Numbered from the stretch's first letter, positions 1-15,920 are shown. The stretch is 24,000 bases of DNA from Brachymonas denitrificans (GCF_907163135.1 NZ_CAJQUA010000002.1:1-24000), one strand, 5' to 3'. Program-made: numbers and translations. Notes: generated by a model not told the origin, from the letters alone.

Positions 1-1787
1 CCCATCAACTTCTGATAGGCAACACCGACCTCCTGCCCGCTCTTTCCAGCAGTGGCGGGTAACGTGCGCAGCGCCTTCTCCAACTCGACATCGTGCGCCT
101 GAATCGCCTGCTGCCATGCGTCATGCTGGGTGGTGAACTGTCCCGCCTTGTCATCAAGCAAGGTCTGCATCGCGGTCAGATGGCCGGTGAACCCCTGCTT
201 GAGTCCATCCAGCGTCGTGCGCATGGCGAGCAACTGGGCAGCATCAGGCAAGCCCTCAAGCGCCTCATCGTTGATGAAGTCAAGGTCAGGCAAGCTGTCA
301 CGCAGGTCTGTAAGCGCGTCGCGAAAGCTCTGTACGCCCTCGGTCGCGGTCTTGGCAATCTCTCGCTCGCGCGCGAGCAATGAGGTCTTGGCCAGCTTCT
401 CCTTGATCCCCAGCTCATCAAAACCGCGAAGCTGCTCTTCCAGCTTGGGCAAACGCTCAACCTGTGCATTCAGCTCGTCGAGATCGGTCAGGGACTTCGT
501 GAGCTTCTGCTGGTTGTCTTTCAAGCGCCTATGCACGTCGGCGCTCTTGGACTCGTACTCTCCGTCTTGAGGAAGGAAGCGATCCAGCAACTGCACCCGG
601 CTGGTTTCATCTTGGGCCAGCTCGTAAATCTCGTTCTGCCCATAAATGTCGATGCCCGGCAGCAAGTCGCGCGGGAGCAGGGTCGAGACGTTGCCATCCA
701 TGTCACGCACCATCGGCGGCTCGCCATGACGGCGCGAAATGGTGTACTGCTTGCCGTTCTGGGCAGAGGACACCACTGTCAGCTCAACCCGACCGGCCGA
801 GCGACCAAGGTTTTCCTTGATGATCTCTTGGTGGAGCTTCTGCGCCTGCTTGCCTTTGGGTGGCAAGTCCAAGGCGAAGCGCAGGCATTCGAGCAAGGTT
901 GACTTACCCGTTCCACGGCCGCCGATCACCGTGTTGAGATGGTCTGAAAAATCCACCCGGACGCCATCAAGGTAGCCACCGGCCACCGTCATGCGGACCA
1001 CCTTACCAATTGGGCTTTGGGCCTGCTGCGAGTTGAGCCGGACTCGCGATCCCGGATCAAGGAAGGCCACCTTGAACGCTGCGAAAGTGGGCCGTGTCAT
1101 CTTGATGAAGCACGTTGCGCTCGGCTGATCCAAGTCATCAGGCTTGGCAACATCCTTGGCATTGATCGCTGCCACAGGACGCTCACGCCGGTAGCCGTCG
1201 TCCTTGTTCAAGAACACCTTGCGATAGAAGTCCCCCTCGATGCTCGTCAGGTCGTCTATCGACCCCGGAATCTGGGCCGCGCGCAGCTTGGGATGCTTCC
1301 AGACGTGGTTCAGGCGGTTTTTCAGCAGCCCGCTTTCCTGCGTGCAATGTGCAGCGTAGATGAACCCGCCCAGTAGATCGACCTCTTCGATCAGCTCTTC
1401 CGAACTCAGCCGAGAAGGCCGAATGCCATCCGCTGGGTCGTGCAGCTTGAGGTTGCCAAGGTAGCGATCAAGCTGCTGCACCGTGGTGTCCTCGGGGAAG
1501 AGACAAACGTAATGCGTCTTGTCGTTCGAGGCGATCTCGAAGCCGGGAAACACCACGATCCCGTGCGGCTGTAGCACCTGACGCAGAGCATCGACGCTGG
1601 CCACGCTACCGTGGTCAGCCAAACCGACAACCTTGATGCCCAGCTCAAGGCACTTTTGAAGCAGCGCTTGGTTGTAGCCGTCTTCATCCAGCCCGTGATC
1701 GGCGCCCCTGTAGGTGCCGTTGTAGCCGACAGGATTGACCTGTAGCGCGCAGCGCCAAAATCTCGCGTAGGTGTATTGATCGCTCAT
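1..1787 (-). CDS. PHP-like phosphoesterase domain fused to an SMC/Rad50-like P-loop ATPase (N-terminal 595 codons; 3' end lies beyond the window edge); PplA-like architecture
   Basis: Absent from the ORF track because there is no in-window stop. The minus-strand frame is open from ATG 1787-1785 (GGGAGGA immediately upstream) to position 1. My translation: MSDQYTYARFWRCALQVNPVGYNG..GLADHGS..GFEIAS..HYVCLF..AAHC (PHP-like motifs), then Walker A VIGGRGTGKSTLLECL (about nt 923-897), then long coiled-coil-like sequence (KLTKSLTDLDELNAQVERLPKLEEQLRGF...). All other ORFs in 1-1787 are short shadow ORFs. Confidence 0.75.
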   Translation of the reverse strand, partial: MSDQYTYARFWRCALQVNPVGYNGTYRGADHGLDEDGYNQALLQKCLELGIKVVGLADHGSVASVDALRQVLQPHGIVVFPGFEIASNDKTHYVCLFPEDTTVQQLDRYLGNLKLHDPADGIRPSRLSSEELIEEVDLLGGFIYAAHCTQESGLLKNRLNHVWKHPKLRAAQIPGSIDDLTSIEGDFYRKVFLNKDDGYRRERPVAAINAKDVAKPDDLDQPSATCFIKMTRPTFAAFKVAFLDPGSRVRLNSQQAQSPIGKVVRMTVAGGYLDGVRVDFSDHLNTVIGGRGTGKSTLLECLRFALDLPPKGKQAQKLHQEIIKENLGRSAGRVELTVVSSAQNGKQYTISRRHGEPPMVRDMDGNVSTLLPRDLLPGIDIYGQNEIYELAQDETSRVQLLDRFLPQDGEYESKSADVHRRLKDNQQKLTKSLTDLDELNAQVERLPKLEEQLRGFDELGIKEKLAKTSLLAREREIAKTATEGVQSFRDALTDLRDSLPDLDFINDEALEGLPDAAQLLAMRTTLDGLKQGFTGHLTAMQTLLDDKAGQFTTQHDAWQQAIQAHDVELEKALRTLPATAGKSGQEVGVAYQKLM

Positions 1788-1878
1788 ATTCCTCCCTGAT
1801 TTCTACAGTTGCGATGCATGGCGACGCGCTACAGGACTATCGGCTGCACCTGCTATTGGTTTTCCGTCATCGAACTCA

Positions 1879-4800
1879 TTACTGGCGAAGTGCGATTTCA
1901 GCTTCAATGATCTCAGCAGCAGCAGCCCTGACCTTGGCGACGATATTGGCCCGCTTCTTAGAGTCATGCTCTTGATGGGCCTGCTTCACCAGCTCAGCAA
2001 GCGCCTTGTGCTCGGCCAAACTGGCGTCATACTCAGGCAGACTCACATGCTTGAAGATGTCGCCCATATTGGTTGCCACGTTGTGCGCCTCGATCATCTC
2101 CTTGACGATCTCCGAGTGAAGCAATCCGCACAAATAAAAGGCTGGCTCCGGTTGATCGAAGTCCGCAAAGTAGAGCTTGTGGTCAGGGACATAAACACGC
2201 GACCCGTAGCCCGGCACAGACCCAGACGCCACGACGGCCGCAGAAAAATCGCCCGTCATCTCGGCCCAAATGACCTTGTAGGGTGCGAAGGTGTAGTCGC
2301 CCACGTTGTAGATTGCGAAGAAGGGAGCACCCTTCATGCGCGTCTTGAAGGTGGAACGCGACTCCAAAAATGGCTTGTAGGCTTTGAAAAACTTGAATGT
2401 CTTGGGATTCGTGTGACTGCTGTAGCGCGCCGCAGCGCTGTCCAATGATGCCCGGTCAATGCCCTTATTAGGCACGAACGCATAGAGCGTGTTCTCCGGC
2501 AGGAAATAGCATGGATGGAGGTCGCCTGCGCCCTTTGCCAGGGGAAACAAGCTCTCAGCCTCAACCCAGAATTCGCGCGGCTGCCCCAAGTCGGTTTTGC
2601 CTTCATGTGGCCGAGTTCGCACCTTGACCGTCTTTGTTGCAGGGTTCGAGTCAATGACATCCACAAAATAGACGCCATTCAGGTCAGTCGTGATGCCCTT
2701 ACGGCCGTTGACCCAAGTAGAGGGGCCAAACATCGGCTGACATGCGGCGAAGTGCCCCGGCTTCATGATGGCCCAAGGAGCCCCCTCCATAGTCTGCGAG
2801 ACGGGATTGGCTTCCATCTGGATCACATCCACAAGATCAGCCACCTCTGCACGATGTAGACGTGGGTCGATTGCCTTCAAGCGAGCCACTTGACCGCCGC
2901 GTCCCTTCTTCGGATTGCCTGCGTTGTCGGTCTTGGGCTTGCCAAGCCAGACCCGGTAGTCCAACGGATAGCGGGTCGTGCCCCCTACCTTCTTCGTGAA
3001 CATGGCGACAGCCGTTTTATTGGCCGCGTCTGGAAACGGCTTTAGCTCCTTCATGTCATCGATGGAGATAGGCACCAAGCGGTCGGTTGCATTGATGCGG
3101 AAGCGCCGGAAGCCTTGCGACGAAGGCGACTGGAACACCGTCTGCGTGATGACAAACACCAACCGTCCATCTTCGACCAGCCACTTGTCAGCCGTCGTGT
3201 AGGTGATGATGGCGGAAATGTCTAATTCGTTACCACCGTGGAACTTGGTGTCCGAGAAGATGGCGTACTTTTCGCAGGTGGGCTTAGCTCGGTTCCGGTA
3301 TGCCTCTGGGAGATTCGACCATCGTACCCAAGGCGGATTACCAACAATGGCATCAAACTGTCCGGCAGTAGCTGACCAAAAGAAGTTGCGCACAATCCTG
3401 AACCAAATGCCGTTCCAGTTCTGCCGATGCAGTGCGAGCACTTGGTCATAGGTCGTCTTGAGGTGGTCATTCCACTCATCGGCCTGCGCCTTGCTCAGTA
3501 TCTTGGCTTTCACCAGCGCCTTAGAGACGGGCGGGAATTCAGTGTCGTTTTCAACCTCTTCTCCCATGAGCTGGAATACTTTGTCGAGCAACACGCGATC
3601 ACGCGCCAAGTCGGCAGGTAGAACAACTTGCAGATTTGCTTGCTGACTGCCAATGCTGTACTCAACCACCTTTTGATCGCCGTCAGGGTGGGGGGCAGGG
3701 GAGTACACCGCATCAGCCAAGAGAACGGGAATCTCAACGTCTTTACCCTTGCACTGCTGCAACAGGTCTGCGATAGCGATCAGGAAGTTGACGCGAGAGG
3801 ATTGCACAGCAAGTGGGTTGAGGTCGAAGCCCCAGACCGTCGTGGTCAGCATGTCCACGGTCTGCTCAGCAGTCCATCCCGCCGTCAGCGCTGCTCGGCG
3901 CTTCTGCTCAATAGCCTCCAGCAAGAACGAACCCGACCCGCATGTCGGGTCAAGTAGCCGAGCAGCAAGCCACTTGTCTCGCTTGTAGCCGAGCTTGGCC
4001 ACAGAGTGCTCGACCAACCAGTCCGGCGTGTAGAACTCGCCAAGGCTCTTGCGCAATTCCTCCGGCACCAAGTCCTGATAGAAGTCACGCAAAACATCGC
4101 GCGAGCGCCCGGTCTTCTTGATGGTATCGAAGCGATAGACCGAAAGCTGAGCTAGCAAGGTGCGAATCGCCAAGCACATCGACGTGCGGATCGCCTTCTT
4201 AGTTGTGGCATCCAGATACCAACTAAAGATGGCTTCTTCGACGAAGCCATGCAAGCCGACTGCGTTGAAGAACCCGCCGTTCTCGACATCCGAGCGTAGG
4301 GCCTCAATCAGAGCTTCGTCCGATCCGAGAGCCAGTAGCTCATGGATCAGGGAAGTGCTTGACGCCATGCCATGTGCAGCCACGATCTCGGCCGCGATCA
4401 GCTTCATCAGCAGGGAATGAAAGGTGTGGGTAACGAAAAGCTTGGCGGGCAAGTCAATGGCGGCCGGGCCTGCGAAGTCAAATCCCAATGACCCATTGAT
4501 CTTCTTGCGCTGTTGAATGCTGAGGTCAGCAGCCTGCCCATACAAGGTTGCCCATTCCTCGAAGAGCATCTTGATTTTGCGGTTGCCGGGCTGCCCAAGA
4601 GCGTCAGCAAGAGCATTGGACAGTTCCTGCATAAACTCGCGGCCTGTCTCGGATAGATGCCCAAAGTCCTCGGCTAGGTTCTCTGATGTGATGGCTCGCC
4701 GGAAATTTGCTCTCAGCGCATCGACCACCATCTGGAAGGCAATGGTCGAGAACGGCATCAGTGGCTGGTGAACGATCTTGCCGTCTTGGACTTGAGCAAA

Positions 4801-5133
4801 GCCCACATGATCGCCGTCGATGGCAATACCGATGTAGTCCTTCTCATCCAGCCCTTGCTCGGCAGCCAAGCGGGGGATGTATTTCAAGAGACGACCATCG
4901 GTCGCCTCGATGAACTTCGGACTTGTCTCACTCCCCTTGAAGAGGCCGGGGCCTTTGAACTCGATGACGACGTTGTTGTAGCTGGAGTCGCGCTTGGCTC
5001 TCTCCGCGTCCAAGTCGATCTGCAAGGCCTCTTCAAGCCCCTTCATCCATGCGTGGCGTACTTCTTCCTCGTTGACCCACTGCTTGCGGCGGCGATTGAT
5101 GAGGTCGTAGCCCTTCTTGGTATTGGTGTCCAT
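1879..5133 (-). CDS. Large gamma-class N6-adenine DNA methyltransferase, type IIG/IIL-like (MmeI/PglX-like build), possibly with an N-terminal PD-ExK nuclease motif and a TaqI_C-like specificity region
   Basis: ORF 1879..5181. I prefer ATG 5133 (MDTNTKKGYD..., GAAGGA upstream). Motif X GEFYTPDWL, motif I LLDPTCGSGSFLLEA, motif IV VGNPPWVRW, in gamma order. C-terminal GRKGITTDLNGVYFVDV resembles the TaqI_C/Eco57I-type TRD motif. N-terminal D49-X8-E58-F-K60 (RDSSYNNVVIEFKGPG). Confidence 0.8.
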   Translation of the reverse strand: MDTNTKKGYDLINRRRKQWVNEEEVRHAWMKGLEEALQIDLDAERAKRDSSYNNVVIEFKGPGLFKGSETSPKFIEATDGRLLKYIPRLAAEQGLDEKDYIGIAIDGDHVGFAQVQDGKIVHQPLMPFSTIAFQMVVDALRANFRRAITSENLAEDFGHLSETGREFMQELSNALADALGQPGNRKIKMLFEEWATLYGQAADLSIQQRKKINGSLGFDFAGPAAIDLPAKLFVTHTFHSLLMKLIAAEIVAAHGMASSTSLIHELLALGSDEALIEALRSDVENGGFFNAVGLHGFVEEAIFSWYLDATTKKAIRTSMCLAIRTLLAQLSVYRFDTIKKTGRSRDVLRDFYQDLVPEELRKSLGEFYTPDWLVEHSVAKLGYKRDKWLAARLLDPTCGSGSFLLEAIEQKRRAALTAGWTAEQTVDMLTTTVWGFDLNPLAVQSSRVNFLIAIADLLQQCKGKDVEIPVLLADAVYSPAPHPDGDQKVVEYSIGSQQANLQVVLPADLARDRVLLDKVFQLMGEEVENDTEFPPVSKALVKAKILSKAQADEWNDHLKTTYDQVLALHRQNWNGIWFRIVRNFFWSATAGQFDAIVGNPPWVRWSNLPEAYRNRAKPTCEKYAIFSDTKFHGGNELDISAIITYTTADKWLVEDGRLVFVITQTVFQSPSSQGFRRFRINATDRLVPISIDDMKELKPFPDAANKTAVAMFTKKVGGTTRYPLDYRVWLGKPKTDNAGNPKKGRGGQVARLKAIDPRLHRAEVADLVDVIQMEANPVSQTMEGAPWAIMKPGHFAACQPMFGPSTWVNGRKGITTDLNGVYFVDVIDSNPATKTVKVRTRPHEGKTDLGQPREFWVEAESLFPLAKGAGDLHPCYFLPENTLYAFVPNKGIDRASLDSAAARYSSHTNPKTFKFFKAYKPFLESRSTFKTRMKGAPFFAIYNVGDYTFAPYKVIWAEMTGDFSAAVVASGSVPGYGSRVYVPDHKLYFADFDQPEPAFYLCGLLHSEIVKEMIEAHNVATNMGDIFKHVSLPEYDASLAEHKALAELVKQAHQEHDSKKRANIVAKVRAAAAEIIEAEIALRQ

Positions 5134-5149
5134 TGTTGTCCTTCTGTTT

Positions 5150-5734
5150 TCAGTTCTGCCGCTTCGGCTCGGGCCGCCCAATAGGAGCTACCTTGTAAAT
5201 TGTGGTTCGCGAGACACCGTACAGCTCGGCGATTCGACCGATGGGGAGCTTCTGCGCGTCCACCATCTCGTTGATCTCTTTGATCTGGGCCTCGGTGAGC
5301 TTTGGCTTCCTCCCGCCGGCGCGGCCTCTGGCTCGGGCTGCGGCAAGGCCTGCACGTGTGCGCTCGCGGATCAGGTCACGCTCCATCTCGGCAAACATGC
5401 CGAACATGGCGTACATGGCCTTGCCCATCGTCGAGTCGTCGAACACGACTCGCGGCTGCAACAGCTCGATGTACACACCGGCAGCACGCAGCCTGTCGGC
5501 GATCTGCACAAGGTCGGAGAGAGACCGTCCCAGCCGGTCGAGCTTCCAGACCACCAAGGTGTCGCCACGCCGCAAGCGCCGCAGGCACTCGGCGAGCTGA
5601 GGCCGGTCAGCGCTCTTGCCGCTGGCCGTTTCCTCGTACACGTCGTCGCACCCAGCTTGCCTGAGAGCATCCCTCTGCAAGTCCGGGTTCTGATCGCTTG
5701 TTGAAACGCGCGCGTATCCGATGCGCTGCTCCAT
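5150..5734 (-). CDS. Serine recombinase (resolvase family) of the backbone
   Basis: MEQRIGYARVSTSDQNPDLQRDAL...VVWKLDRLGRS...RERTRAGL...C-terminal HTH (IGRIAELYGVSRTTIYK). ATG at 5734. Catalytic Ser motif YARVST. Confidence 0.9.
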   Translation of the reverse strand: MEQRIGYARVSTSDQNPDLQRDALRQAGCDDVYEETASGKSADRPQLAECLRRLRRGDTLVVWKLDRLGRSLSDLVQIADRLRAAGVYIELLQPRVVFDDSTMGKAMYAMFGMFAEMERDLIRERTRAGLAAARARGRAGGRKPKLTEAQIKEINEMVDAQKLPIGRIAELYGVSRTTIYKVAPIGRPEPKRQN

Positions 5735-5764
5735 TGGCCGTCCCCGCCCTCAAGGCACAAAAAA

Positions 5765-5792
5765 TGTCCAGCAAAGGTGTGTTTGCTGGACG
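5765..5792. promoter_or_regulatory. 28-bp inverted-repeat resolvase-binding site (res subsite) upstream of the backbone resolvase
   Basis: TGTCCAGCAAA-ggtgtg-TTTGCTGGACg. Arms are 10-11 bp with the TGTC...GACA polarity typical of serine-resolvase sites, about 30 bp upstream of ATG 5734. Confidence 0.5.
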
Positions 5793-5842
5793 TTGATAAG
5801 TTGACGGCAATTTTAACAGCCGGGCGGCACTTTGGACAGGCA

Positions 5843-5847
5843 AAAAC
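5843..5847. repeat. Target-site duplication AAAAC, left copy
   Basis: AAAAC immediately outside the IR at 5848. The same pentamer lies immediately outside IRt at 17614-17618. Confidence 0.7.
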
Positions 5848-5872
5848 TGTCGTTTTCAGAAGGCGACTGCAC
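5848..5872 (+). repeat. 25-bp Tn402-family terminal inverted repeat (IRi-type variant)
   Basis: tgtcgttttcagaaggcgactgcac differs at 3 positions from the class 1 integron IRi at 8108-8132. Confidence 0.8.
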
Positions 5873-5898
5873 CAGTTCACTGGGCTGGCCGCCGTGTG

Positions 5899-5940
5899 TG
5901 CATAGAACTTCTGACCGGGAACGGTCAGAAGTTCTATGCA
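5899..5940. repeat. 42-bp perfect palindrome made of two inverted TniA-box-like 19-mers
   Basis: TGCATAGAACTTCTGACCG-ggaa-CGGTCAGAAGTTCTATGCA. The right arm resembles the inner repeat gaacgtcagaagccgactgcac next to the integron IRi. Confidence 0.7.
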
Positions 5941-5995
5941 CGAAGCGCCGCGAGAGATCGGAATTGCTCAGAACTCTTGTGCACGGCGCGACAAA

Positions 5996-6019
5996 GCCGG
6001 AACCGCCGAAAATTCCGGC
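5996..6019 (-). terminator. Weak hairpin downstream of orf183
   Basis: GCCGGAA-n10-TTCCGGC just after the stop at 6022. Only a TTT tract follows on the minus strand. Confidence 0.3.
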
Positions 6020-6021
6020 GA

Positions 6022-6573
6022 TCAACCGGCAAGCTGCTTGATGCGCTCGGCCAGGCGGCCGAAAGCCTCGTTCACGTATTCCAGCACCTTGGGTTCTGCG
6101 CCCTGCGTGCGCAGCGAGTCTTTGAAGGCTTCCAGGTCGGACAGCCATTGCCGATGCAGGCGGCCCAGCTCGTCGAGCTGAGGCCGGAAGTCTTGGAGAC
6201 TGCCGCTCGCACGAAACGCCTGGTAGCCACGCTCAAGCGTGGCCGCCGTGGTCAGCAGTTGCGCGCCCATTTGCTTGTGCTGTTCGGAGAACTCGGCCAT
6301 GCCGTCATAGGGCCGCGAAGCCTTGCGGCGCTCGGCTTCGGATGCCTCTTCCATGATGCGGGCGTAGCGGTAGAACCCTGGGAACTCGCGGGACAGCGCC
6401 ATGAGCTGCTGATCGGATGTGCCGACCCAAATCCTGTGCAGGTCAGGCCCGTACCCCATCATGCGATTGATGATGGCATGGGCCTCGCTGACACCCTGGG
6501 CGGCAAGCTGCTGCATGTGTTGGTCGATCTTCGCGGCCAGTCGGCGGAATTCGTTCATGCTCATGTCCGTCAC
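6022..6573 (-). CDS. Hypothetical, apparently helix-rich (by eye) protein (about 180 aa) tightly linked to vapC
   Basis: ORF 183 aa (MTDMSMNEFRRLAAKIDQHMQQLAAQG...). GTG 6573 overlaps the vapC stop (GTGA); alternative ATGs at 6564 and 6558. I recognise no family motif. Confidence 0.55.
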   Translation of the reverse strand: MTDMSMNEFRRLAAKIDQHMQQLAAQGVSEAHAIINRMMGYGPDLHRIWVGTSDQQLMALSREFPGFYRYARIMEEASEAERRKASRPYDGMAEFSEQHKQMGAQLLTTAATLERGYQAFRASGSLQDFRPQLDELGRLHRQWLSDLEAFKDSLRTQGAEPKVLEYVNEAFGRLAERIKQLAG

Positions 6574-6965
6574 AAAAGGCGCGTTGATTGCCCTTGCGCC
6601 GTGAGAAGTGCCACCGCCTTCTTATCGAAGGAAACGAAGGTTTCCCCGCCAAGCCAGTTGCCTTCGTAGGCAATGACGCCATCGGCAAAGTCTCCGCCCG
6701 CGTCGAGCACCAGCAAGCCAGCCTCCACGGCAGGCCGGTTCACTTCCACATTCGCGGCGGCCAGTAGTGCCCGGATCGCGCTGGCCGCGTCGGCTTGCTG
6801 GAAGCCGTAGACACGCAGCAGCACCCAAACAAATTCGCATAGGCACGGCAGCGCGACCGCGATCAACTCGGCGTCGGTCAAGACTGCGGCGGCAACGTCC
6901 GCTTGTGCGGGATCGTCACGCACAACCGCACGCACAAGGACGTTGGTATCGACTGCGACCTTCAT
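6570..6965 (-). CDS. vapC: PIN-domain toxin (VapC family)
   Basis: MKVAVDTNVLVRAVV...CEFVWVL...FADGVI gives the acidic PIN residues. Its ATG overlaps the stop of the upstream antitoxin gene (ATGA). Confidence 0.85.
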   Translation of the reverse strand: MKVAVDTNVLVRAVVRDDPAQADVAAAVLTDAELIAVALPCLCEFVWVLLRVYGFQQADAASAIRALLAAANVEVNRPAVEAGLLVLDAGGDFADGVIAYEGNWLGGETFVSFDKKAVALLTAQGQSTRLL

Positions 6966-7213
6966 TGCTTACCTGCCCAGCCTTGCGCCGCCGCCTCGTT
7001 GATTTCTTCGATGGTGGCAACCTTCTGCGTCTTGCCCGCGAGCAGGCCGACAAAGCTGGCTATCGTCCCTGCGGGCCGTGCCGCCTTGAGCACGCCCCGA
7101 CCGTCTGGCAACAAGTCCAGCTCGATCTTGTCGCCTGGCCTGATGCCGAGGTGTTGCAGTACGTCCTTCCGAAACGTCACTTGTCCCCGTGCGGTAACGG
7201 TCAATGTGGTCAT
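6962..7213 (-). CDS. vapB: AbrB/SpoVT-fold antitoxin (VapB-type)
   Basis: MTTLTVTARGQVTFRKDVLQHLGIRPGDKIEL is a typical SpoVT/AbrB swapped-hairpin N-terminus. ATG 7213 has GAGGG upstream. The track start at 7231 is a TTG. Confidence 0.8.
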   Translation of the reverse strand: MTTLTVTARGQVTFRKDVLQHLGIRPGDKIELDLLPDGRGVLKAARPAGTIASFVGLLAGKTQKVATIEEINEAAAQGWAGKQ

Positions 7214-7278
7214 GGTGGTTTGCCCTCGCAATCAAGGTTGATGCTTCACATAGTAATGCAAAAATGCCTTACCGTCAA

Positions 7279-7353
7279 TGTCCGTCAAACGATCATTAGT
7301 CGGCCATGCCGGACACTGTCCAGCAAAGTTATTGCACAACGGGTTGTCGGACA
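7279..7353. promoter_or_regulatory. res-like region of the element A resolvase: two adjacent 37-bp TGTCC...GGACA sites
   Basis: TGTCCGTCAAAC...GCCGGACA (7279-7315) and TGTCCAGCAAAG...GTCGGACA (7317-7353), followed by CGGACG/CGGACA repeats. Lies between divergent vapB and the resolvase gene. Confidence 0.5.
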
Positions 7354-7394
7354 TTAAGATAGGCGGACGGAATGACGGACAAGAGAGGCGGCAA

Positions 7395-7961
7395 ATGGCA
7401 CTGATCGGCTATGCGCGGGTATCGACGGCGGAACAGGACACCGCCTTGCAGACGGATGCGCTACGCAAGGCAGGCTGCGAGCGCGTTTTCGAGGACACGG
7501 CTTCCGGGGCCAAGGCCGACCGCCCCGGCTTGGCTGATGCGCTGGCCTACCTGCGCGACGGCGACGTGCTGGCCGTCTGGCGGCTGGATCGGCTCGGGCG
7601 CTCTATGCCGCACCTAATCGAAACGATAGGCGCGCTGGAAGCGCGAGGCGTCGGCTTCCGTTCTCTGACGGAAGCCATCGACACCACCACGCCAGGCGGG
7701 CGGCTCATCTTCCACGTGTTCGGCGCGCTGGGCCAGTTCGAGCGCGACTTGATCCGCGAGCGCACCAAGGCCGGGTTGACTGCCGCCGCCGCTCGTGGGA
7801 GGAAGGGCGGGCGAAAGCCGGTTGTCACCGCCGACAAGTTGCAGCGAGCGCGGGAGCACATCGCCAACGGGCTTAATGTCCGAGAGGCCGCTACACGGCT
7901 CAAGGTGAGCAAGACGGCCCTGTACACCGCGCTGCAATCCACCAGTGCAGCCGACTCCTGA
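7395..7961 (+). CDS. Serine resolvase (TniR-like position in element A)
   Basis: MALIGYARVSTAEQDTALQTDAL...AVWRLDRLGRS...RERTKAGL...HTH VREAATRLKVSKTALY. ATG 7395 with GAGAGG upstream. The last codons (STSAADS) are encoded by inner IRt-type repeat sequence. Confidence 0.85.
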   Translation: MALIGYARVSTAEQDTALQTDALRKAGCERVFEDTASGAKADRPGLADALAYLRDGDVLAVWRLDRLGRSMPHLIETIGALEARGVGFRSLTEAIDTTTPGGRLIFHVFGALGQFERDLIRERTKAGLTAAAARGRKGGRKPVVTADKLQRAREHIANGLNVREAATRLKVSKTALYTALQSTSAADS

Positions 7962-7967
7962 TATTCC

Positions 7968-7992
7968 GTGCAGTCGTCTTCTGAAAATGACA
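7968..7992 (-). repeat. 25-bp IRt-type terminal repeat (right end of element A)
   Basis: Reverse complement is tgtcattttcagaagacgactgcac, identical to the IRt at 17589-17613. Confidence 0.85.
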
Positions 7993-8025
7993 GCTCACGC
8001 GCAGGTAGATGCGTGCGACTTTCAT
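7993..8025 (-). pseudogene. 11-codon 5' remnant of a serine recombinase gene, cut by the IRt of element A
   Basis: Minus strand reads AGGAGGcccgcATGAAAGTCGCACGCATCTACCTGCGCGTGAGC = MKVARIYLRVS, the canonical resolvase N-terminus up to the catalytic Ser, with a strong SD. Confidence 0.55.
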
Positions 8026-8036
8026 GCGGGCCTCCT

Positions 8037-8064
8037 GGTCATTTTGGGTATAGGGAAAATGACC
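8037..8064. promoter_or_regulatory. 28-bp perfect-arm palindrome, putative res crossover site of the truncated resolvase
   Basis: GGTCATTTT-gggtataggg-AAAATGACC, centre TA|TA, immediately upstream of the remnant ATG at 8025. Confidence 0.5.
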
Positions 8065-8107
8065 ATTGTTTCACGCCTAGCCAAAAAGGGAAGGTTCCCG
8101 GTTCAAA

Positions 8108-8132
8108 TGTCGTTTTCAGAAGACGGCTGCAC
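8108..8132 (+). repeat. IRi of class 1 integron / Tn402
   Basis: tgtcgttttcagaagacggctgcac followed by ctgaacgtcagaagccgactgcactatagcagcggaggggttgg, which I recognise as the 5'-CS outer end. Confidence 0.9.
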
Positions 8133-8309
8133 TGAACGTCAGAAGCCGACTGCACTATAGCAGCGGAGGGGTTGGATCCATCAGGCAACGACGGGCTGCT
8201 GCCGGCCATCAGCGGACGCAGGGAGGACTTTCCGCAACCGGCCGTTCGATGCGGCACCGATGGCCTTCGCGCAGGGGTAGTGAATCCGCCAGGATTGACT
8301 TGCGCTGCC

Positions 8310-8533
8310 CTACCTCTCACTAGTGAGGGGCGGCAGCGCATCAAGCGGTGAGCGCACTCCGGCACCGCCAACTTTCAGCACATGCGTGTAAATCATCGTC
8401 GTAGAGACGTCGGAATGGCCGAGCAGATCCTGCACGGTTCGAATGTCGTAACCGCTGCGGAGCAAGGCCGTCGCGAACGAGTGGCGGAGGGTGTGCGGTG
8501 TGGCGGGCTTCGTGATGCCTGCTTGTTCTACGG
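8310..8533 (-). pseudogene. intI1: intI1 3' fragment (C-terminal ~74 codons) truncated by IS26
   Basis: Translation ...[61 protein letters not shown]. The reading frame runs into the IS26 IR at 8534. Confidence 0.9.
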
Positions 8534-9353
8534 GGCACTGTTGCAAATAGTCGGTGGTGATAAACTTATCATCCCCTTTTGCTGATGGAGCTGCACATGA
8601 ACCCATTCAAAGGCCGGCATTTTCAGCGTGACATCATTCTGTGGGCCGTACGCTGGTACTGCAAATACGGCATCAGTTACCGTGAGCTGCAGGAGATGCT
8701 GGCTGAACGCGGAGTGAATGTCGATCACTCCACGATTTACCGCTGGGTTCAGCGTTATGCGCCTGAAATGGAAAAACGGCTGCGCTGGTACTGGCGTAAC
8801 CCTTCCGATCTTTGCCCGTGGCACATGGATGAAACCTACGTGAAGGTCAATGGCCGCTGGGCGTATCTGTACCGGGCCGTCGACAGCCGGGGCCGCACTG
8901 TCGATTTTTATCTCTCCTCCCGTCGTAACAGCAAAGCTGCATACCGGTTTCTGGGTAAAATCCTCAACAACGTGAAGAAGTGGCAGATCCCGCGATTCAT
9001 CAACACGGATAAAGCGCCCGCCTATGGTCGCGCGCTTGCTCTGCTCAAACGCGAAGGCCGGTGCCCGTCTGACGTTGAACACCGACAGATTAAGTACCGG
9101 AACAACGTGATTGAATGCGATCATGGCAAACTGAAACGGATAATCGGCGCCACGCTGGGATTTAAATCCATGAAGACGGCTTACGCCACCATCAAAGGTA
9201 TTGAGGTGATGCGTGCACTACGCAAAGGCCAGGCCTCAGCATTTTATTATGGTGATCCCCTGGGCGAAATGCGCCTGGTAAGCAGAGTTTTTGAAATGTA
9301 AGGCCTTTGAATAAGACAAAAGGCTGCCTCATCGCTAACTTTGCAACAGTGCC
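8534..9353 (+). mobile_element. IS26 (copy 1), 820 bp
   Basis: Terminal 14-bp IRs GGCACTGTTGCAAA (8534) and TTTGCAACAGTGCC (ends 9353). Encodes Tnp26. Confidence 0.97.
8597..9301 (+). CDS. tnp26: IS26 transposase Tnp26
   Basis: [60 protein letters not shown]..., 234 aa. Confidence 0.95.
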
Positions 9354-9622
9354 TAAAATAAGCCTTATATCCAAGCATAAAACAAGGTTGTCTAGACTTC
9401 TTTTAACAGTAAAGTTATCATAAAACTGAATTTTATTTTTTAGGTAAGTTTATGCATTCTATCCGCATTCGTTAAGACACAACTATTTGCATAGTGACAC
9501 TATTTTATAATGGTGGGCTTTTGTTGTGTCTTTAAGAATATATGCGGATATATAAAGTAAAAGTATGCTTAATTTATAAGTATGCTTTTAGTGCATAGTT
9601 TCCAGTTATAACTTAATTGACT

Positions 9623-9661
9623 AGCTATTTGTCCACCCTGTGGATGAATAGCTTTTTTTTT
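9623..9661 (+). terminator. Hairpin plus T9 tract upstream of msr(E) (terminator/attenuator)
   Basis: AGCTATTtgTCCAccctgTGGAtgAATAGCT followed by TTTTTTTTT. Confidence 0.5.
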
Positions 9662-9662
9662 G

Positions 9663-9741
9663 GGAGGACACTGTGATGCTAGCTTTTGTTTTCACCTAAA
9701 TCCTGTTTGCTGCATAAAAAATTTCAAGAGCTAAACAGGAG
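9663..9741 (+). promoter_or_regulatory. Candidate msr(E) leader peptide plus SD-sequestering hairpin
   Basis: GGAGGA-n7-ATG CTA GCT TTT GTT TTC ACC TAA (MLAFVFT, 9676-9699). Then TCCTGTTTGCT (9701-9711) can pair with AGCTAAACAGGA (9729-9740), which contains the msr(E) SD AGGAG (9737-9741). Confidence 0.35.
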
Positions 9742-9750
9742 TAAATAAAA

Positions 9751-11226
9751 ATGAGTTTAATTATTAAAGCGAGAAACATACGCTTGGATTATGCTGGGCG
9801 TGATGTTTTGGATATTGATGAATTGGAAATTCACTCTTATGACCGTATTGGTCTTGTGGGTGATAACGGAGCAGGAAAGAGTAGTTTACTCAAAGTACTT
9901 AATGGCGAAATTGTTTTAGCCGAAGCGACATTACAGCGTTTTGGTGATTTTGCACATATCAGCCAACTGGGCGGAATCGAAATAGAAACGGTCGAAGACC
10001 GGGCAATGTTATCTCGCCTTGGTGTTTCCAATGTACAAAACGACACAATGAGTGGCGGAGAGGAAACTCGTGCAAAAATTGCTGCCGCATTTTCCCAACA
10101 AGTACATGGCATTCTAGCGGATGAACCAACCAGCCACCTTGATCTCAATGGAATAGATCTACTTATTGGTCAACTTAAAGCATTTGATGGAGCATTACTT
10201 GTTATCAGTCATGACCGATATTTTCTTGATATGGTTGTAGACAAGATATGGGAGTTAAAAGACGGTAAAATTACGGAATATTGGGGTGGTTACTCGGATT
10301 ACTTGCGTCAAAAAGAAGAAGAGCGACAACACCAAGCCGTAGAATATGAGCTGATGATGAAGGAACGGGAGCGATTAGAATCTGCTGTGCAAGAAAAACG
10401 CCAGCAAGCTAATCGATTAGACAATAAGAAAAAAGGAGAAAAATCCAAAAACTCTACCGAAAGTGCTGGACGACTTGGGCATGCAAAAATGACTGGCACC
10501 AAGCAAAGAAAACTGTATCAGGCAGCTAAGAGTATGGAAAAGCGTTTGGCTGCATTAGAAGATATTCAAGCACCAGAGCATTTGCGTTCTATTCGTTTTC
10601 GTCAAAGTTCAGCCCTAGAACTGCACAATAAGTTCCCGATTACGGCAGATGGTCTGAGCTTAAAATTTGGTAGCCGTACTATCTTTGATGACGCTAACTT
10701 TATAATACCGCTTGGCGCTAAAGTCGCTATAACTGGATCGAATGGAACAGGGAAAACGTCCTTGTTAAAAATGATATCAGAACGTGCTGATGGATTAACC
10801 ATATCTCCAAAAGCTGAAATTGGCTACTTTACACAAACAGGATATAAATTTAACACGCATAAATCTGTGCTCTCCTTTATGCAGGAAGAGTGCGAGTACA
10901 CAGTTGCGGAAATTCGTGCAGTATTGGCTTCAATGGGGATCGGAGCGAATGATATTCAAAAAAACTTATCCGACTTATCGGGAGGTGAAATCATCAAACT
11001 GCTTTTATCCAAAATGCTTTTAGGAAAATATAATATTTTGCTTATGGATGAACCAGGAAACTATCTTGACCTAAAAAGTATTGCCGCATTAGAAACAATG
11101 ATGAAGTCCTATGCAGGAACTATTATCTTCGTATCTCATGACAAGCAATTGGTCGATAATATTGCTGACATTATCTACGAGATCAAAGACCACAAAATCA
11201 TCAAGACTTTTGAGAGAGATTGTTAA
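9751..11226 (+). CDS. msr(E): ABC-F ribosomal protection protein Msr(E) (macrolide/streptogramin B resistance)
   Basis: 491 aa. Two ABC cassettes ([10 protein letters not shown] and [10 protein letters not shown] Walker A; LSGGE signatures) with a charged inter-domain linker. Sequence recognised as Msr(E). Low-GC context. Confidence 0.93.
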
Positions 11227-11281
11227 TGATAGCCAATCTAATCCGAACATTAATTATTGAACTCTTTAAAGGAAATTAAAA

Positions 11282-12166
11282 ATGACAATTCAAGATATTC
11301 AATCACTTGCTGAAGCACACGGCTTGTTGCTTACGGACAAAATGAATTTCAATGAAATGGGCATTGATTTTAAGGTCGTTTTTGCTCTTGATACAAAGGG
11401 GCAACAATGGTTGCTGCGTATTCCTCGTCGTGATGGCATGAGGGAACAAATCAAGAAAGAAAAACGCATTTTAGAATTGGTAAAAAAACATCTTTCTGTA
11501 GAGGTTCCTGATTGGAGAATTTCATCTACAGAATTAGTGGCTTATCCCATACTTAAAGATAATCCTGTTTTAAATTTGGATGCTGAAACCTATGAAATAA
11601 TTTGGAATATGGACAAAGATAGCCCGAAATACATAACATCTTTGGCAAAAACCTTATTTGAAATCCATAGTATTCCTGAAAAAGAAGTTCGGGAAAATGA
11701 TTTGAAAATTATGAAACCTTCAGATTTAAGACCTGAAATAGCAAACAATTTGCAGTTAGTAAAATCTGAAATTGGTATAAGTGAGCAATTGGAAACCCGC
11801 TACAGAAAATGGTTGGATAATGATGTTCTATGGGCAGATTTCACCCAATTTATACATGGCGATTTATATGCTGGGCATGTACTAGCTTCAAAGGATGGAG
11901 CTGTTTCAGGCGTTATTGATTGGTCAACAGCCCATATAGATGACCCAGCGATTGATTTTGCTGGGCATGTAACTTTGTTTGGAGAAGAAAGCCTCAAAAC
12001 TCTAATCATCGAGTATGAAAAACTAGGGGGTAAAGTTTGGAATAAACTATATGAACAGACTTTAGAAAGAGCAGCGGCCTCTCCTTTGATGTATGGTTTA
12101 TTTGCCTTAGAAACTCAAAATGAAAGCCTTATCGTTGGAGCAAAAGCTCAGTTGGGAGTTATATAA
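11282..12166 (+). CDS. mph(E): Macrolide 2'-phosphotransferase Mph(E)
   Basis: 294 aa, APH-fold motifs (FIHGDLYAGHVL, IDWSTAHIDDPAIDFA). Lies 55 bp downstream of msr(E), as in the known msr(E)-mph(E) operon. Confidence 0.93.
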   Translation: MTIQDIQSLAEAHGLLLTDKMNFNEMGIDFKVVFALDTKGQQWLLRIPRRDGMREQIKKEKRILELVKKHLSVEVPDWRISSTELVAYPILKDNPVLNLDAETYEIIWNMDKDSPKYITSLAKTLFEIHSIPEKEVRENDLKIMKPSDLRPEIANNLQLVKSEIGISEQLETRYRKWLDNDVLWADFTQFIHGDLYAGHVLASKDGAVSGVIDWSTAHIDDPAIDFAGHVTLFGEESLKTLIIEYEKLGGKVWNKLYEQTLERAAASPLMYGLFALETQNESLIVGAKAQLGVI

Positions 12167-12244
12167 TTTAAAAATATGATTGCTGAGAACTGCCTTGTTT
12201 TGAAACTTGGTTGGCTTTAATTAGTTTTTAGTATTCTTTATAGA

Positions 12245-12268
12245 AAATGCCTCGATCAAGGGGCATTT
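12245..12268. terminator. Hairpin between convergent mph(E) and the GIY-YIG gene
   Basis: AAATGCC-tcgatcaag-GGGCATTT. Short T runs on both strands. Confidence 0.35.
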
Positions 12269-12277
12269 CTAACAATC

Positions 12278-12305
12278 ATTTAACATAAAATTTCTTATGC
12301 GAAAT
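12278..12305. other. pdif-type XerD/XerC recombination site (Acinetobacter dif-module boundary)
   Basis: ATTTAACATAA-aatttc-TTATGCGAAAT is the reverse complement of the XerD arm TTATGTTAAAT, a 6-bp spacer, then the reverse complement of the XerC arm ATTTCGCATAA. Confidence 0.7.
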
Positions 12306-12736
12306 TACATACCAACTTTAACCACATTGTGGACAGGTTGGATTTTAGAGATAAGAAAAACTTCTAGGGCATTTGCTAAATAAGCCGTATCACGCTCAAA
12401 GCCTATTGTAATGATGGATCCAGCATCTTTCAGTCTTGGATCTATCGCAATATATTCAGTTTTATCTTCATTCCATCGGCAATATTTCATTACCCTGGCG
12501 CTTAAGCCATTACCACGATAACGGCCAGCACCTCTAGAAGTCCCAACACCGATATAAGTCACTAAATCCCCTTTGACAAACGCATATACACCTTGTTTAT
12601 CGTAATTAGGAATTTTTCCAAAATTAAAATGTACTGGTGACCATTCAGGAGGCTTTCCTAATAGGTCTACATTCCAGTGATGTTCGAAGAATAATTCTGT
12701 ATTACGTATTAACTTATTAAGTGTTGGATCTTCCAC
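12305..12736 (-). CDS. GIY-YIG nuclease-domain protein
   Basis: 143 aa with GVYAFVKGDLVTYIGVG (GIY-x9-YIG), downstream Arg residues, and E...N (GFERD...ISKIQPVHN). Confidence 0.65.
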   Translation of the reverse strand: MEDPTLNKLIRNTELFFEHHWNVDLLGKPPEWSPVHFNFGKIPNYDKQGVYAFVKGDLVTYIGVGTSRGAGRYRGNGLSARVMKYCRWNEDKTEYIAIDPRLKDAGSIITIGFERDTAYLANALEVFLISKIQPVHNVVKVGM

Positions 12737-12753
12737 TACTTATCCCTCAAAAT

Positions 12754-13083
12754 TTATAAATTAAAAAGCTTTCGGTCACGCTCATCTGTTAAATACTTAT
12801 CCATCTGAGCAATTAATTTAGCTCTGGCTTGTTCATCATCTTCAGTGATCTTTAGCATACAGGATCCAATTAAAATTTTGCGTCTGGTATCATCCTTTCG
12901 AGCTTGTTCTTTCTCTTTAGCACGTTCTCTTGCCAGTGCTGCCTGTCTTTGAGCCTTTAACTGCTTTAGCTTTTCTTCCTGTGCTTTGATTTTGCTGTCT
13001 AGTGTTTCAGTAACGCTCATTAATCCAATACCATCATCCTGGGAAACCATCCCTAACATAAGCGCACTTGAATATGCATTCAA
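12754..13083 (-). CDS. TraD-like small coiled-coil relaxosome accessory protein (start uncertain)
   Basis: ...RERAKEKEQARKDDTRRKILIGSCMLK...DERDRKLFNL matches my memory of Ti-plasmid-type TraD (DTRRKIxxG ... LF.L). The track start 13083 is a TTG; ATG alternatives at 13059, 13050 and 13020. Confidence 0.55.
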   Translation of the reverse strand: MNAYSSALMLGMVSQDDGIGLMSVTETLDSKIKAQEEKLKQLKAQRQAALARERAKEKEQARKDDTRRKILIGSCMLKITEDDEQARAKLIAQMDKYLTDERDRKLFNL

Positions 13084-13249
13084 GGTGCTATATGTATAGT
13101 AATGTTTTCCTCGAAGAGCACGCCTAGCGCGACCGCAACCAAGCGTCGAAAAAGTATACGCTCGTCACCCGCCGTCTCCTGTGCTGAGAGTCTCAGGCCG
13201 ATCGGCCGGCAGGGCTCAATGTCAGCAAACGCGTGATGAGCGGTGGCCT

Positions 13250-13528
13250 TCAACAGTGATAAGGCGGCACCAGAGAAAAATCACTCAGGGTCAATGCCAG
13301 CGCTTCGTTAATACAGATGTAGGTGTTCCACAGGGTAGCCAGCAGCATCCTGCGATGCAGATCCGGAACATAATGGTGCAGGGCGCTGACTTCCGGTGCC
13401 AGCAGATATTTTGGCAGTTTGCCTTGGATCAGAGCCATCTGACGCAGGGCTAGTGCAGCCGGATAGTCAATAGCTACCGGCAGCGGTGCGGACTGTTGTA
13501 ACTCAGAATAAGAAATGAGGCCGCTCAT
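13250..13528 (-). pseudogene. N-terminal fragment of a recombinase-like ORF from the pSC101-type tet(C) flank
   Basis: The DNA from about 13290 rightward matches my memory of the pSC101/pBR322 sequence downstream of tet. The ORF ends abruptly near the junction with the low-GC segment. Confidence 0.35.
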
Positions 13529-13977
13529 GGCGTTGACTCTCAGTCATAGTATCGTGGTATCACCGGTTGGTTCCACTCTCTGTTGCGGGCAACTTCAGCA
13601 GCACGTAGGGGACTTCCGCGTTTCCAGACTTTACGAAACACGGAAACCGAAGACCATTCATGTTGTTGCTCAGGTCGCAGACGTTTTGCAGCAGCAGTCG
13701 CTTCACGTTCGCTCGCGTATCGGTGATTCATTCTGCTAACCAGTAAGGCAACCCCGCCAGCCTAGCCGGGTCCTCAACGACAGGAGCACGATCATGCGCA
13801 CCCGTGGCCAGGACCCAACGCTGCCCGAGATGCGCCGCGTGCGGCTGCTGGAGATGGCGGACGCGATGGATATGTTCTGCCAAGGGTTGGTTTGCGCATT
13901 CACAGTTCTCCGCAAGAATTGATTGGCTCCAATTCTTGGAGTGGTGAATCCGTTAGCGAGGTGCCGCCGGCTTCCAT

Positions 13978-15168: not shown

Positions 15169-15260
15169 ACACGGTGCCTGACTGCGTTAGCAATTTAACT
15201 GTGATAAACTACCGCATTAAAGCTTATCGATGATAAGCTGTCAAACATGAGAATTCGCGA
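15169..15260. promoter_or_regulatory. Divergent tet(C)/tetR(C) promoter-operator region
   Basis: ttaactgtgataaactaccgcattaAAGCTTATCGATGATAAGCTgtcaaacatgag contains a 19-bp operator-like palindrome at 15221-15239. Corresponds to the pBR322 tet promoter region. Confidence 0.8.
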
Positions 15261-15920
15261 ATGAACAAGCTCCAACGCGAGGCCGTGATCCGAACCGCGC
15301 TCGAACTGCTTAACGACGTGGGCATGGAAGGTCTAACGACGCGCCGACTGGCTGAGCGCCTCGGGGTGCAACAGCCAGCGCTCTACTGGCATTTCAAGAA
15401 CAAGCGTGCGTTGCTCGACGCACTTGCCGAAGCCATGCTGACGATAAATCACACGCATTCGACGCCAAGGGATGACGACGACTGGCGTTCGTTCCTGAAG
15501 GGCAATGCATGCAGTTTTCGACGGGCGTTGCTCGCTTATCGCGATGGCGCGCGTATTCATGCCGGGACGCGGCCAGCCGCGCCGCAGATGGAAAAAGCCG
15601 ACGCGCAGCTTCGCTTCCTTTGCGATGCTGGCTTTTCGGCAGGTGACGCGACCTATGCGTTGATGGCAATCAGCTACTTCACCGTCGGCGCTGTTCTTGA
15701 GCAGCAAGCTAGCGAGGCAGACGCCGAGGAGCGGGGCGAAGATCAGTTGACCACCTCAGCGTCTACGATGCCGGCGCGCCTACAGAGCGCGATGAAAATC
15801 GTCTACGAAGGCGGTCCGGACGCGGCATTCGAGCGAGGCCTGGCTCTCATCATCGGCGGTCTTGAAAAAATGAGGCTCACTACGAACGACATTGAGGTGC
15901 TGAAGAATGTTGACGAATGA
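15261..15920 (+). CDS. tetR(C): Tetracycline repressor TetR(C)
   Basis: 219 aa. TetR HTH LTTRRLAERLGVQQPALYWHFKNKRALLDAL. Divergent from tet(C). Confidence 0.92.
   Translation: MNKLQREAVIRTALELLNDVGMEGLTTRRLAERLGVQQPALYWHFKNKRALLDALAEAMLTINHTHSTPRDDDDWRSFLKGNACSFRRALLAYRDGARIHAGTRPAAPQMEKADAQLRFLCDAGFSAGDATYALMAISYFTVGAVLEQQASEADAEERGEDQLTTSASTMPARLQSAMKIVYEGGPDAAFERGLALIIGGLEKMRLTTNDIEVLKNVDE

Follow-up and report, generated by a model that had tools for sequence, protein, structure and literature searches.

The window analysed here, a 24,000-nucleotide stretch of Brachymonas denitrificans DNA (NZ_CAJQUA010000002.1:1-24000), begins with three minus-strand genes, encoding a small serine resolvase, a DNA methyltransferase of 1084 amino acids (hereafter referred to as the methyltransferase), and an ATPase with a PHP-like and an SMC-like domain (hereafter TrlF, after the family to which its sequence assigns it). 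An earlier note on this DNA had taken the last two for a dedicated two-component defence module. The reading that I favour, with a probability of about 0.6, is that the resolvase and two separate defence genes are modular cargo on a mobilisable plasmid.

The features of the three genes are as follows, residue numbers being those of the encoded proteins.

5150-5734, minus strand: small serine recombinase (resolvase), 194 amino acids (Pfam Resolvase, E-value 8.6e-45; HTH_7, E-value 2.4e-10)
1879-5133, minus strand: methyltransferase, a predicted Type IIG-like restriction-modification (R-M) enzyme of 1084 amino acids, with an N-terminal alpha/beta domain, a helical spacer, a gamma methyltransferase and a C-terminal specificity region
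5056-5073, minus strand: invariant E22 and E24 of the methyltransferase, upstream of D49-x8-E58-x-K60
4954-4989, minus strand: D49-x8-E58-x-K60 motif (DSSYNNVVIEFK), candidate PD-(D/E)xK catalytic motif, from homologue alignments
3328-4038, minus strand: methyltransferase catalytic core, spanning EFYTP to NPPW
4024-4038, minus strand: EFYTP, residues 366-370, read from the sequence
3925-3951, minus strand: DPTCGSGSF, residues 395-403, read from the sequence
3328-3339, minus strand: NPPW, residues 599-602, read from the sequence
1788-1878, minus strand: spacer of 91 nucleotides between the methyltransferase and TrlF, holding the TrlF ribosome-binding site GGGAGG, from the sequence
1-1787, minus strand: N-terminal 595 codons of TrlF, with the PHP-like domain (~residues 1-250), the Walker A motif and the start of a long helical insert
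1731-1760, minus strand: FWRCALQVNP, a family-invariant N-terminal strand of TrlF, at the place where canonical PHP domains and Ppl have D-x-H-x-H
897-923, minus strand: TrlF Walker A motif GGRGTGKST, residues 289-297

The stop codon of the resolvase (TGA, 5150-5152) is followed 16 nucleotides later by the methyltransferase start codon (ATG, 5133). The methyltransferase stop codon (TAA) lies at 1879-1881, and TrlF starts at ATG 1787, 91 nucleotides past that stop and preceded by GGGAGG; neither a terminator-like site nor a sigma-70-like, consensus promoter-like site was found in the spacer. Database homologues of the methyltransferase and the ATPase number 938 and 2340, one figure for each gene, and both are therefore real genes and not chance open reading frames (ORFs). 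Positions 1-5800 are 98% identical to NZ_CP058629, a MOBP mobilisable plasmid of Chitinibacter bivalviorum, where RefSeq labels the trio as a recombinase, an N-6 DNA methylase and an 884-amino-acid 'TrlF family AAA-like ATPase' (WP_110612455.1). On all of this the earlier note had been accurate: the strands, starts, stops and gaps are confirmed, the EFYTP, DPTCGSGSF and NPPW motifs (in gamma order) and GGRGTGKST are all present, and the setting is indeed a mobilisable plasmid with a recombinase.

Joint and separate occurrence of the two defence genes

Two neighbourhood samples were compared, one of 80 TrlF loci drawn from species-representative genomes, and one of 80 metagenomic loci of the methyltransferase family. 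The methyltransferase stands directly upstream of TrlF in 6 of the 80 TrlF loci. In the methyltransferase sample, a full or contig-cut TrlF lies downstream in 6 loci, and all of these methyltransferase copies are at least 90% identical to that of the window. Five loci at 92-93% identity have TrlF reduced to short remnants downstream, and among ~50 loci below 90% identity that include downstream sequence, none has TrlF downstream and one (L145) has it upstream. The remnants in L093-L095, L105 and L106 (TrlF residues ~150-258) adjoin intact methyltransferase genes, again at 92-93% identity; TrlF is therefore readily lost from the position behind the methyltransferase.

Each gene is also found without the other. 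Plasmids of Sulfuricystis (two), Acetobacter and a Raoultella/Klebsiella/Aeromonas lineage carry the methyltransferase without TrlF, and plasmids of Acetobacter, Xanthomonas and Comamonas carry TrlF without the methyltransferase, these lone copies being 81-98% identical to the window at the DNA level, with more than 90% reached for each gene. Moreover, the resolvase, the methyltransferase and TrlF diverge discordantly inside single loci: identities to the window are 99%, 98.5% and 93%, in that order, in L016, and 61%, 97% and 94% in L015. The junctions between methyltransferase and TrlF are of two different types.

The methyltransferase and TrlF are thus no obligate pair and no conserved unit, and are not supported as a dedicated system. 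The methyltransferase, which the earlier note had proposed as a possible conserved neighbour of the ATPase homologues, co-occurs with them rarely, an outcome that the note itself had counted against its proposal. What was found in the window is ordinary modular cargo and not a new two-component system, and TrlF is a family already named and annotated.

The same 9 bp, TACACCTAC (window 1763-1787, the first 8 TrlF codons; L008:5930-6060; L002:8700-8830), hold two independent rearrangement breakpoints. The Raoultella/Klebsiella/Aeromonas plasmids are window-like as far as TACACCTAC and have unrelated genes beyond it, while the homology of the Acetobacter plasmids to the window begins only from TACACCTAC onward. 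Recombination may have a hot spot at the 5' end of TrlF, or the two breakpoints may fall together by coincidence (n=2).

The methyltransferase and TrlF as proteins

The PADLOC model REase_MTase_IIG (PDLC03630) aligns to residues 14-1074 of the methyltransferase, with an E-value of 8.5e-240, and two Pfam families pass their cut-offs, Eco57I with 44.3 bits (cut-off 25.3) and N6_Mtase with 37.3 bits (cut-off 20.4). The EFYTP, DPTCGSGSF and NPPW motifs correspond to the gamma order (motifs X, I and IV), and their residues are unchanged across homologues. A profile search of the PDB gave matches confined to the S-adenosylmethionine (SAM)-binding core of CamA, BsaXI, PglX/BrxX and DrdV; in the PDB sequence and profile searches nothing was found beyond this core, and MmeI was not reported.

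At the N-terminus, residues E22, E24, D49, E58 and K60 are invariant in two alignments, of 18 and 24 homologues, with identities down to 49%. As far as sequence can tell, these invariants fit the E...D...ExK pattern of PD-(D/E)xK nucleases. In an AlphaFold model of residues 1-340 (predicted local distance difference test, pLDDT, 87) an alpha/beta domain leads into a helical spacer, and E58 and K60 lie on or beside the strand formed by residues 55-59. Since the D-x8-ExK motif, which the earlier note had overlooked, comes together with a full-length match to a Type IIG model, a separate nuclease would not be needed, which argues against the division of labour in the earlier note, between a modification enzyme and an ATP-driven nuclease. 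The recurrent neighbours in the 80 family loci are a resolvase (14/80) and one unannotated upstream cluster (14/80); no other neighbour is conserved, and the protein thus fits a stand-alone enzyme. Taken together, the methyltransferase is probably a self-contained Type IIG-like R-M enzyme.

Three other identities were considered for the methyltransferase and rejected. It does not belong to the MmeI family proper: the only MmeI-named Pfam family reported for it, MmeI_Mtase, scores 22.7 bits, below the cut-off of 27, and the PDB profile search did not return MmeI. It is not the PglX of a bacteriophage exclusion (BREX) system either, as it scores 43.7 bits against the NCBIfam BREX-2 PglX cut-off of 400 and has no BREX genes alongside, BrxC, PglZ and BrxL all being absent near the methyltransferase in the window, on the Chitinibacter plasmid and in the family loci. 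Finally, for MADS, the methylation-associated defence system, MAD2 scores 33 bits (cut-off 720), no other mad genes are present, and the PADLOC mad2 and mad3 matches are only partial (E-values 2.9e-15 and 8.9e-9). The description of the protein as MmeI/PglX-like therefore holds broadly, at the level of the class, but not at that of either family. Within the methyltransferase family, some members (P0185-P0190) have a length of 870 amino acids and are 86-89% identical to the query across only 46% of its length. The C-terminal specificity halves thus look swapped, in the way expected of enzymes that change their target by domain exchange.

For TrlF, the window holds a partial copy, and the full-length protein was scored through a 98%-identical copy of 884 amino acids. 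Against the NCBIfam TrlF model (NF045780, cut-off 350 bits) the window fragment scores 312.7 bits, and the full-length copy 575.6 bits over model positions 2-944. Against the Ppl model (NF042955, cut-off 1000) the corresponding scores are 83.6 and 173.4 bits, and Ppl identity was rejected for the full-length protein. A profile comparison of TrlF with a plasmid-borne Ppl, using hhalign, nevertheless gives a probability of 99.8% (E-value 1e-27, 26% identity). By these scores, the ATPase is assigned to the TrlF family, as a distant relative of Ppl; the earlier note, which had matched its architecture to Ppl, was right about the homology but not about the family. The Rad50/SMC-like head that it described is backed by matches to AAA_23, SMC_N and Rad50. 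The signature motif, Walker B and H-loop of this head are encoded beyond the window edge.

The PHP domain of the same description is only partly confirmed, by structure, and its active site is not the expected one. The Pfam PHP match stays under threshold (E-value 0.02). Residues 1-270, modelled with AlphaFold, have a pLDDT of 66 overall, with a good core across 40-210, and when the model was compared to the PDB with Foldseek, the best 13 matches were all PHP-domain proteins (probability 0.94-1.0, E-values from 2e-3), including EndoQ, the PHP domain of Pol III alpha, the phosphoesterase BAD_1165 and PolC. However, no HxH is present: residues 1-60 contain H31 and H59 as their only histidines, and in an analysis of 78 homologues (51-99% identity) C13, A14, L15, Q16 and N18 are kept in 78/78. 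In Ppl this segment reads FDFHNHTP, and the H12A change abolishes Ppl defence (bioRxiv 10.1101/2022.06.16.496414).

The alignments disagree on what replaces these histidines. In the hhalign comparison, which starts at residue 45, the DxH of Ppl lies opposite D212-V-A214; a global pairwise alignment sets the HxH of Ppl against N23/T25 and not Q16/N18; and a profile comparison with the PHP domain of DnaE2 covers just residues 37-92. The absence of HxH in TrlF is thus certain, its exact substitutes are not. In the 78 homologues CALQVN (13-18), H59, E84, H92, H147, H161, D212 and D244 are 97-100% conserved, and the Walker A, signature (LSTGQQ), Walker B and H-loop are conserved to the same degree. 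Because of this conservation the PHP-like domain is taken to be under selection, and it is best described, from the alignments, as conserved but non-canonical.

RefSeq gives one TrlF copy a double-strand-break-repair Gene Ontology (GO) term, and literature searches for the origin of the name TrlF gave nothing relevant. The family is abundant, one scan having matched 226 species-level genomes. Relatives with less than 60% identity (~22-40% among the matches listed) were found in 1071 plasmid records, most of them of conjugative plasmids from Escherichia and Klebsiella, and many of these distant relatives are annotated 'TrlF family', others Ppl. At one such locus, on an IncF plasmid (L169), restriction genes are absent among the annotated neighbours.

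Genes around TrlF and the competing explanations

A protein of ~413 amino acids, with Schlafen AlbA_2 and HATPase_c_4 domains, is encoded directly downstream of TrlF in 54 of the 80 loci, with a gap of ~3-12 nucleotides. This partner is present in 53 of the 63 loci with less than 75% identity, versus 1 of 17 in the window's clade, and it was not found on the Chitinibacter plasmid (98% identical) or in the metagenome copies; judging from this distribution, the window's plasmid clade has lost it. The systems found around TrlF are varied:

L034: BREX-1, in the order BrxC ... PglX-TrlF-partner-PglZ-BrxL, with stops and starts overlapping
L049: BREX-2, with PglW and PglX
L043, L046, L053, L058 and L060: Type I, with HsdM-HsdS upstream or HsdR downstream
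L020, L021 and L030: Type III
L014 and L024: Type ISP
L018: XhoI-like type II
L085:1988-13231: TrlF and its partner between DUF2397/DUF2398 genes and a 1382-amino-acid SbcC-like gene

The last of these operons is one that I take to be Wadjet type II, and because of it the TrlF cassette is not confined to methylation-based systems. A DNA methyltransferase is encoded upstream of TrlF, on the same strand, in 34 of the 80 loci, and in 20 it is the adjacent gene; no locus has one downstream or on the opposite strand. Counting only the 59 loci that offer at least 5 kb of upstream sequence, the figure is 32. PglX is the commonest immediate upstream neighbour of TrlF in other genomes, and some loci sit among non-defence genes. 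At the level of classes, the polar link between TrlF and methylation-based defence operons is real in this sample. The R-M and BREX logic invoked in the earlier note stands at this level, with TrlF habitually following R-M and BREX genes, but not for a specific pair.

Three loci depart from the usual arrangement. In L084 (10631-13248) one TrlF is followed by two tandem Schlafen/HATPase partners, of 412 and 430 amino acids; in L145 (2330-8138, a metagenome contig) the order is reversed, TrlF (48% identity) standing directly upstream of a 52%-identical methyltransferase; and in L170 (2623-10424, a Klebsiella IncF plasmid) TrlF is followed by an 'RNA-binding' partner, HsdS, an AAA ATPase and HsdM.

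In eight loci of the window's clade, a resolvase homologue (56-99% identity) lies 17-22 nucleotides upstream of restriction cargo, with TrlF at the opposite end. The cargo between them varies, being IIG, ISP, XhoI-like type II or type III, and in loci with differing upstream cargo the DNA homology starts just ~15 nucleotides ahead of the TrlF ATG. On a Xanthomonas plasmid that carries TrlF alone, a type ISP gene has left its 3' remnant upstream. This frame of resolvase, restriction cargo and TrlF looks like cassette exchange between conserved flanks.

The partner class, though apparently not the pair, is known from recent literature. A 2026 survey of BREX loci ties Schlafen-histidine-kinase-wHTH (winged helix-turn-helix) proteins to these loci in at least 1017 taxa (PMC12839542), and a PHP or SMC-type ATPase partner goes unmentioned in its text and the supplements consulted. 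A 2025 preprint reports that bacterial Schlafens are able to defend against phage and lists histidine-kinase fusions as the commonest class; neither an ATPase nor an operon is mentioned there. PADLOC v2 has no model covering the TrlF-Schlafen pair.

In the reading of the locus as modular cargo, the N-terminal D-ExK domain of the methyltransferase would cut unmarked DNA, its C-terminal region would set the target sequence, and the enzyme would thus protect without a partner. TrlF cassettes are habitually found at the 3' end of, or within, other defence operons, the Schlafen/HATPase partner, with which TrlF travels in most of the family, being the probable RNase effector, and the window's clade circulates as a frame of resolvase, exchangeable restriction system and TrlF from which the partner has been lost. 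TrlF itself would act as an independent or back-up layer, in which the ATPase head would detect DNA ends or a phage cue, the response being carried out by the variant PHP domain or, in loci that have one, by the Schlafen partner.

Several observations weigh against this reading. The neighbourhood counts are approximate, as neighbouring genes were called by a simple ORF rule and methyltransferases by a home-made iterated profile. The window contains 595 of the 884 TrlF codons, and the 3' end of the gene and whatever follows it lie beyond the window. For the methyltransferase N-terminus, Foldseek gave no significant match in the PDB that would point to a nuclease fold, and Pfam gave no match on seven N-terminal fragments. 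In TrlF, three canonical PHP histidines are missing, which makes its status as a nuclease uncertain. Lastly, the strict downstream, same-strand and often translationally coupled position of TrlF exceeds what loose defence-island clustering would give, and its place beside methylation-based systems may reflect functional coupling.

A broader proposal is that TrlF, usually with its Schlafen/histidine-kinase-like RNase partner, is a widespread and undescribed second immune layer linked to restriction, placed at the 3' end of methylation-based operons (BREX-1/2, I, III, ISP, II and IIG), where it would be triggered once anti-restriction proteins have disabled the front-line system, or would destroy what remains of DNA already cut by that system; the window's clade would have dropped the RNase partner. 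I put this forward tentatively, as a possibility.

In a related and somewhat doubtful explanation, TrlF would be a restriction-linked accessory that serves whichever methylation-based system stands upstream, either as a guard that fires on an anti-restriction block, or as a Rad50/Mre11-like machine that destroys restriction-cut DNA. PrrC with EcoprrI and PARIS with Ocr are precedents for such a guard. The polar position described above (34/80, adjacent in 20, never downstream) speaks for it, as do the overlaps between PglX stop and TrlF start in several loci (gap -4), the at least seven unrelated system types that stand ahead of TrlF, the interchangeable restriction cargo between resolvase and TrlF in the close clade, and the type ISP remnant kept upstream of the lone Xanthomonas TrlF. 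Back-up effectors embedded in BREX loci, including a Schlafen-histidine-kinase-wHTH protein, are moreover documented (PMC12839542). However, TrlF and its partner also occur in the Wadjet-like operon, which lacks a methyltransferase, and in non-defence surroundings; no methyltransferase is seen in 27 of the 59 loci that include 5 kb or more of upstream sequence; the order is reversed in more distant relatives (L145 and the Klebsiella plasmid L170); and the upstream bias is partly a product of fixed operon orders.

It is improbable that TrlF has no part in immunity and is instead an SbcCD/Rad50-type factor for DNA repair or plasmid maintenance, mitigating the double-strand breaks made by a neighbouring restriction enzyme or aiding the establishment of mobile elements. 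The Rad50/SMC-like ATPase head, the GO term on one RefSeq copy and the altered PHP site are consistent with it, and one copy adjoins alkB/ada (Acetobacter), another an AlkB-like gene (L012). On the other hand, TrlF is homologous to Ppl, whose anti-phage activity has been seen in experiments; in 54 of the 80 loci it is tightly coupled to a Schlafen-type protein, and proteins of this class have been shown to defend against phage; BREX and restriction operons contain embedded copies of TrlF; and the gene is mobile, patchily distributed and often decayed.

Very unlikely is the dedicated two-component system, in which the methyltransferase would mark self DNA and the ATPase/PHP protein would be the nuclease: the co-directional genes with their 91-nucleotide, terminator-free gap, the recurrence of the pair in six species-level genomes and several metagenome contigs, and the weak mad2 and mad3 matches speak for it, but the two genes co-occur only in a single shallow lineage of the methyltransferase (identity of 90% or more) and in 6/80 TrlF loci, either gene also stands alone at high identity, TrlF has decayed next to intact methyltransferase genes, the methyltransferase contains a conserved nuclease-type motif of its own and matches a Type IIG model, and the PHP site of TrlF lacks the HxH in which the H12 required by Ppl lies.

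What gives the modular-cargo reading its wider interest is TrlF, an uncharacterised yet abundant family with a polar tie to R-M and BREX operons, whose Schlafen-type partner is treated, in the papers searched, without mention of an ATPase partner. If TrlF guards or completes restriction, it would add an extra layer to the back-up of methylation-based immunity, and this would matter for the way in which resistance plasmids shield their hosts against phages and rival plasmids.

The window is indeed part of such a resistance plasmid, as its other features illustrate:

5735-5960, no strand assigned: pre-resolvase region, probably res/regulatory, with a hairpin at 5766-5791 and a 33-nucleotide inverted repeat at 5885-5954
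5848-17509, no strand assigned: resistance region, bounded by IS26-type copies at 8579-9301 and 16735-17457

The inverted repeat upstream of the resolvase (33 nucleotides, 82% complementary, with a 4-nucleotide spacer) is probably a res crossover or binding site. Just beside it, at ~5848, the plasmid backbone ends and the resistance region begins, the sequence being 100% identical to resistance plasmids from there on. Inserted into the backbone, this region carries IS26 together with msr(E), mph(E) and tet(C). In annotated relatives the genes at this place are msr(E), mph(E) and tet(C)/tetR, and from position and order I infer that these are the ORFs at 9751-11226, 11282-12166, 13978-15168 and 15261-15920. 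It also contains a second resolvase (7278-7961), and an overlapping pair of small genes at 6570-7231 resembles a toxin-antitoxin pair. The hairpin upstream of the window's resolvase, GTCCAGCAAA-loop-TTTGCTGGAC followed by a T-run (5766-5791), recurs directly upstream of TrlF on an Acetobacter plasmid (L002) that has neither the resolvase nor the restriction gene; from this recurrence it looks as if the resolvase and its cargo were a single insertion/deletion unit. A repeat search of positions 1-6200 found no substantial inverted or direct repeats save the site upstream of the resolvase, and specificity switching driven by the recombinase was therefore rejected.

Comparison with known systems

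The methyltransferase resembles the PglX of BREX in being a large gamma adenine methyltransferase with Eco57I and MmeI-type domain matches. It differs in scoring 43.7 bits where the PglX model demands 400, and in its conserved nuclease-type motif, of a kind that PglX is not known to have.

Ppl is reportedly a single-gene anti-phage system (Gao et al. 2020). It shares with TrlF a PHP-like domain and an ABC/SMC-type ATPase in one protein of ~890 amino acids, the two proteins are homologous, and plasmid-borne copies of both exist. The differences are that Ppl has FDFHNHTP where TrlF is without HxH, and that TrlF is mostly accompanied by a Schlafen-type partner and located within other defence operons, Ppl being described as a single gene.

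PARIS, which consists of the ABC ATPase AriA and the nuclease AriB, and PrrC are alike to most TrlF loci in their organization, namely an ABC-type ATPase with a separate RNase-type effector, embedded for TrlF in BREX or restriction operons, and weak PADLOC matches to AriA were obtained. TrlF is nevertheless not a PARIS member at the level of sequence: its effector is Schlafen/HATPase and not TOPRIM, TrlF has an additional PHP-like domain, and the window's clade is without an effector partner.

The methyltransferase also resembles the Type IIG/IIL enzymes (MmeI, DrdV and Eco57I-like). No member of its family is known to have been characterised, and it reaches DrdV, PglX and BsaXI via the SAM-binding core only. 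Its architecture is that of the Type IIG/IIL enzymes, a single chain with a putative N-terminal nuclease, a helical spacer, a gamma methyltransferase (motifs X-I-IV) and a C-terminal specificity region; the match to the PADLOC Type IIG model is full-length, and, as in the Type IIG/IIL enzymes, C-terminal halves appear to be swapped among the members of its family.

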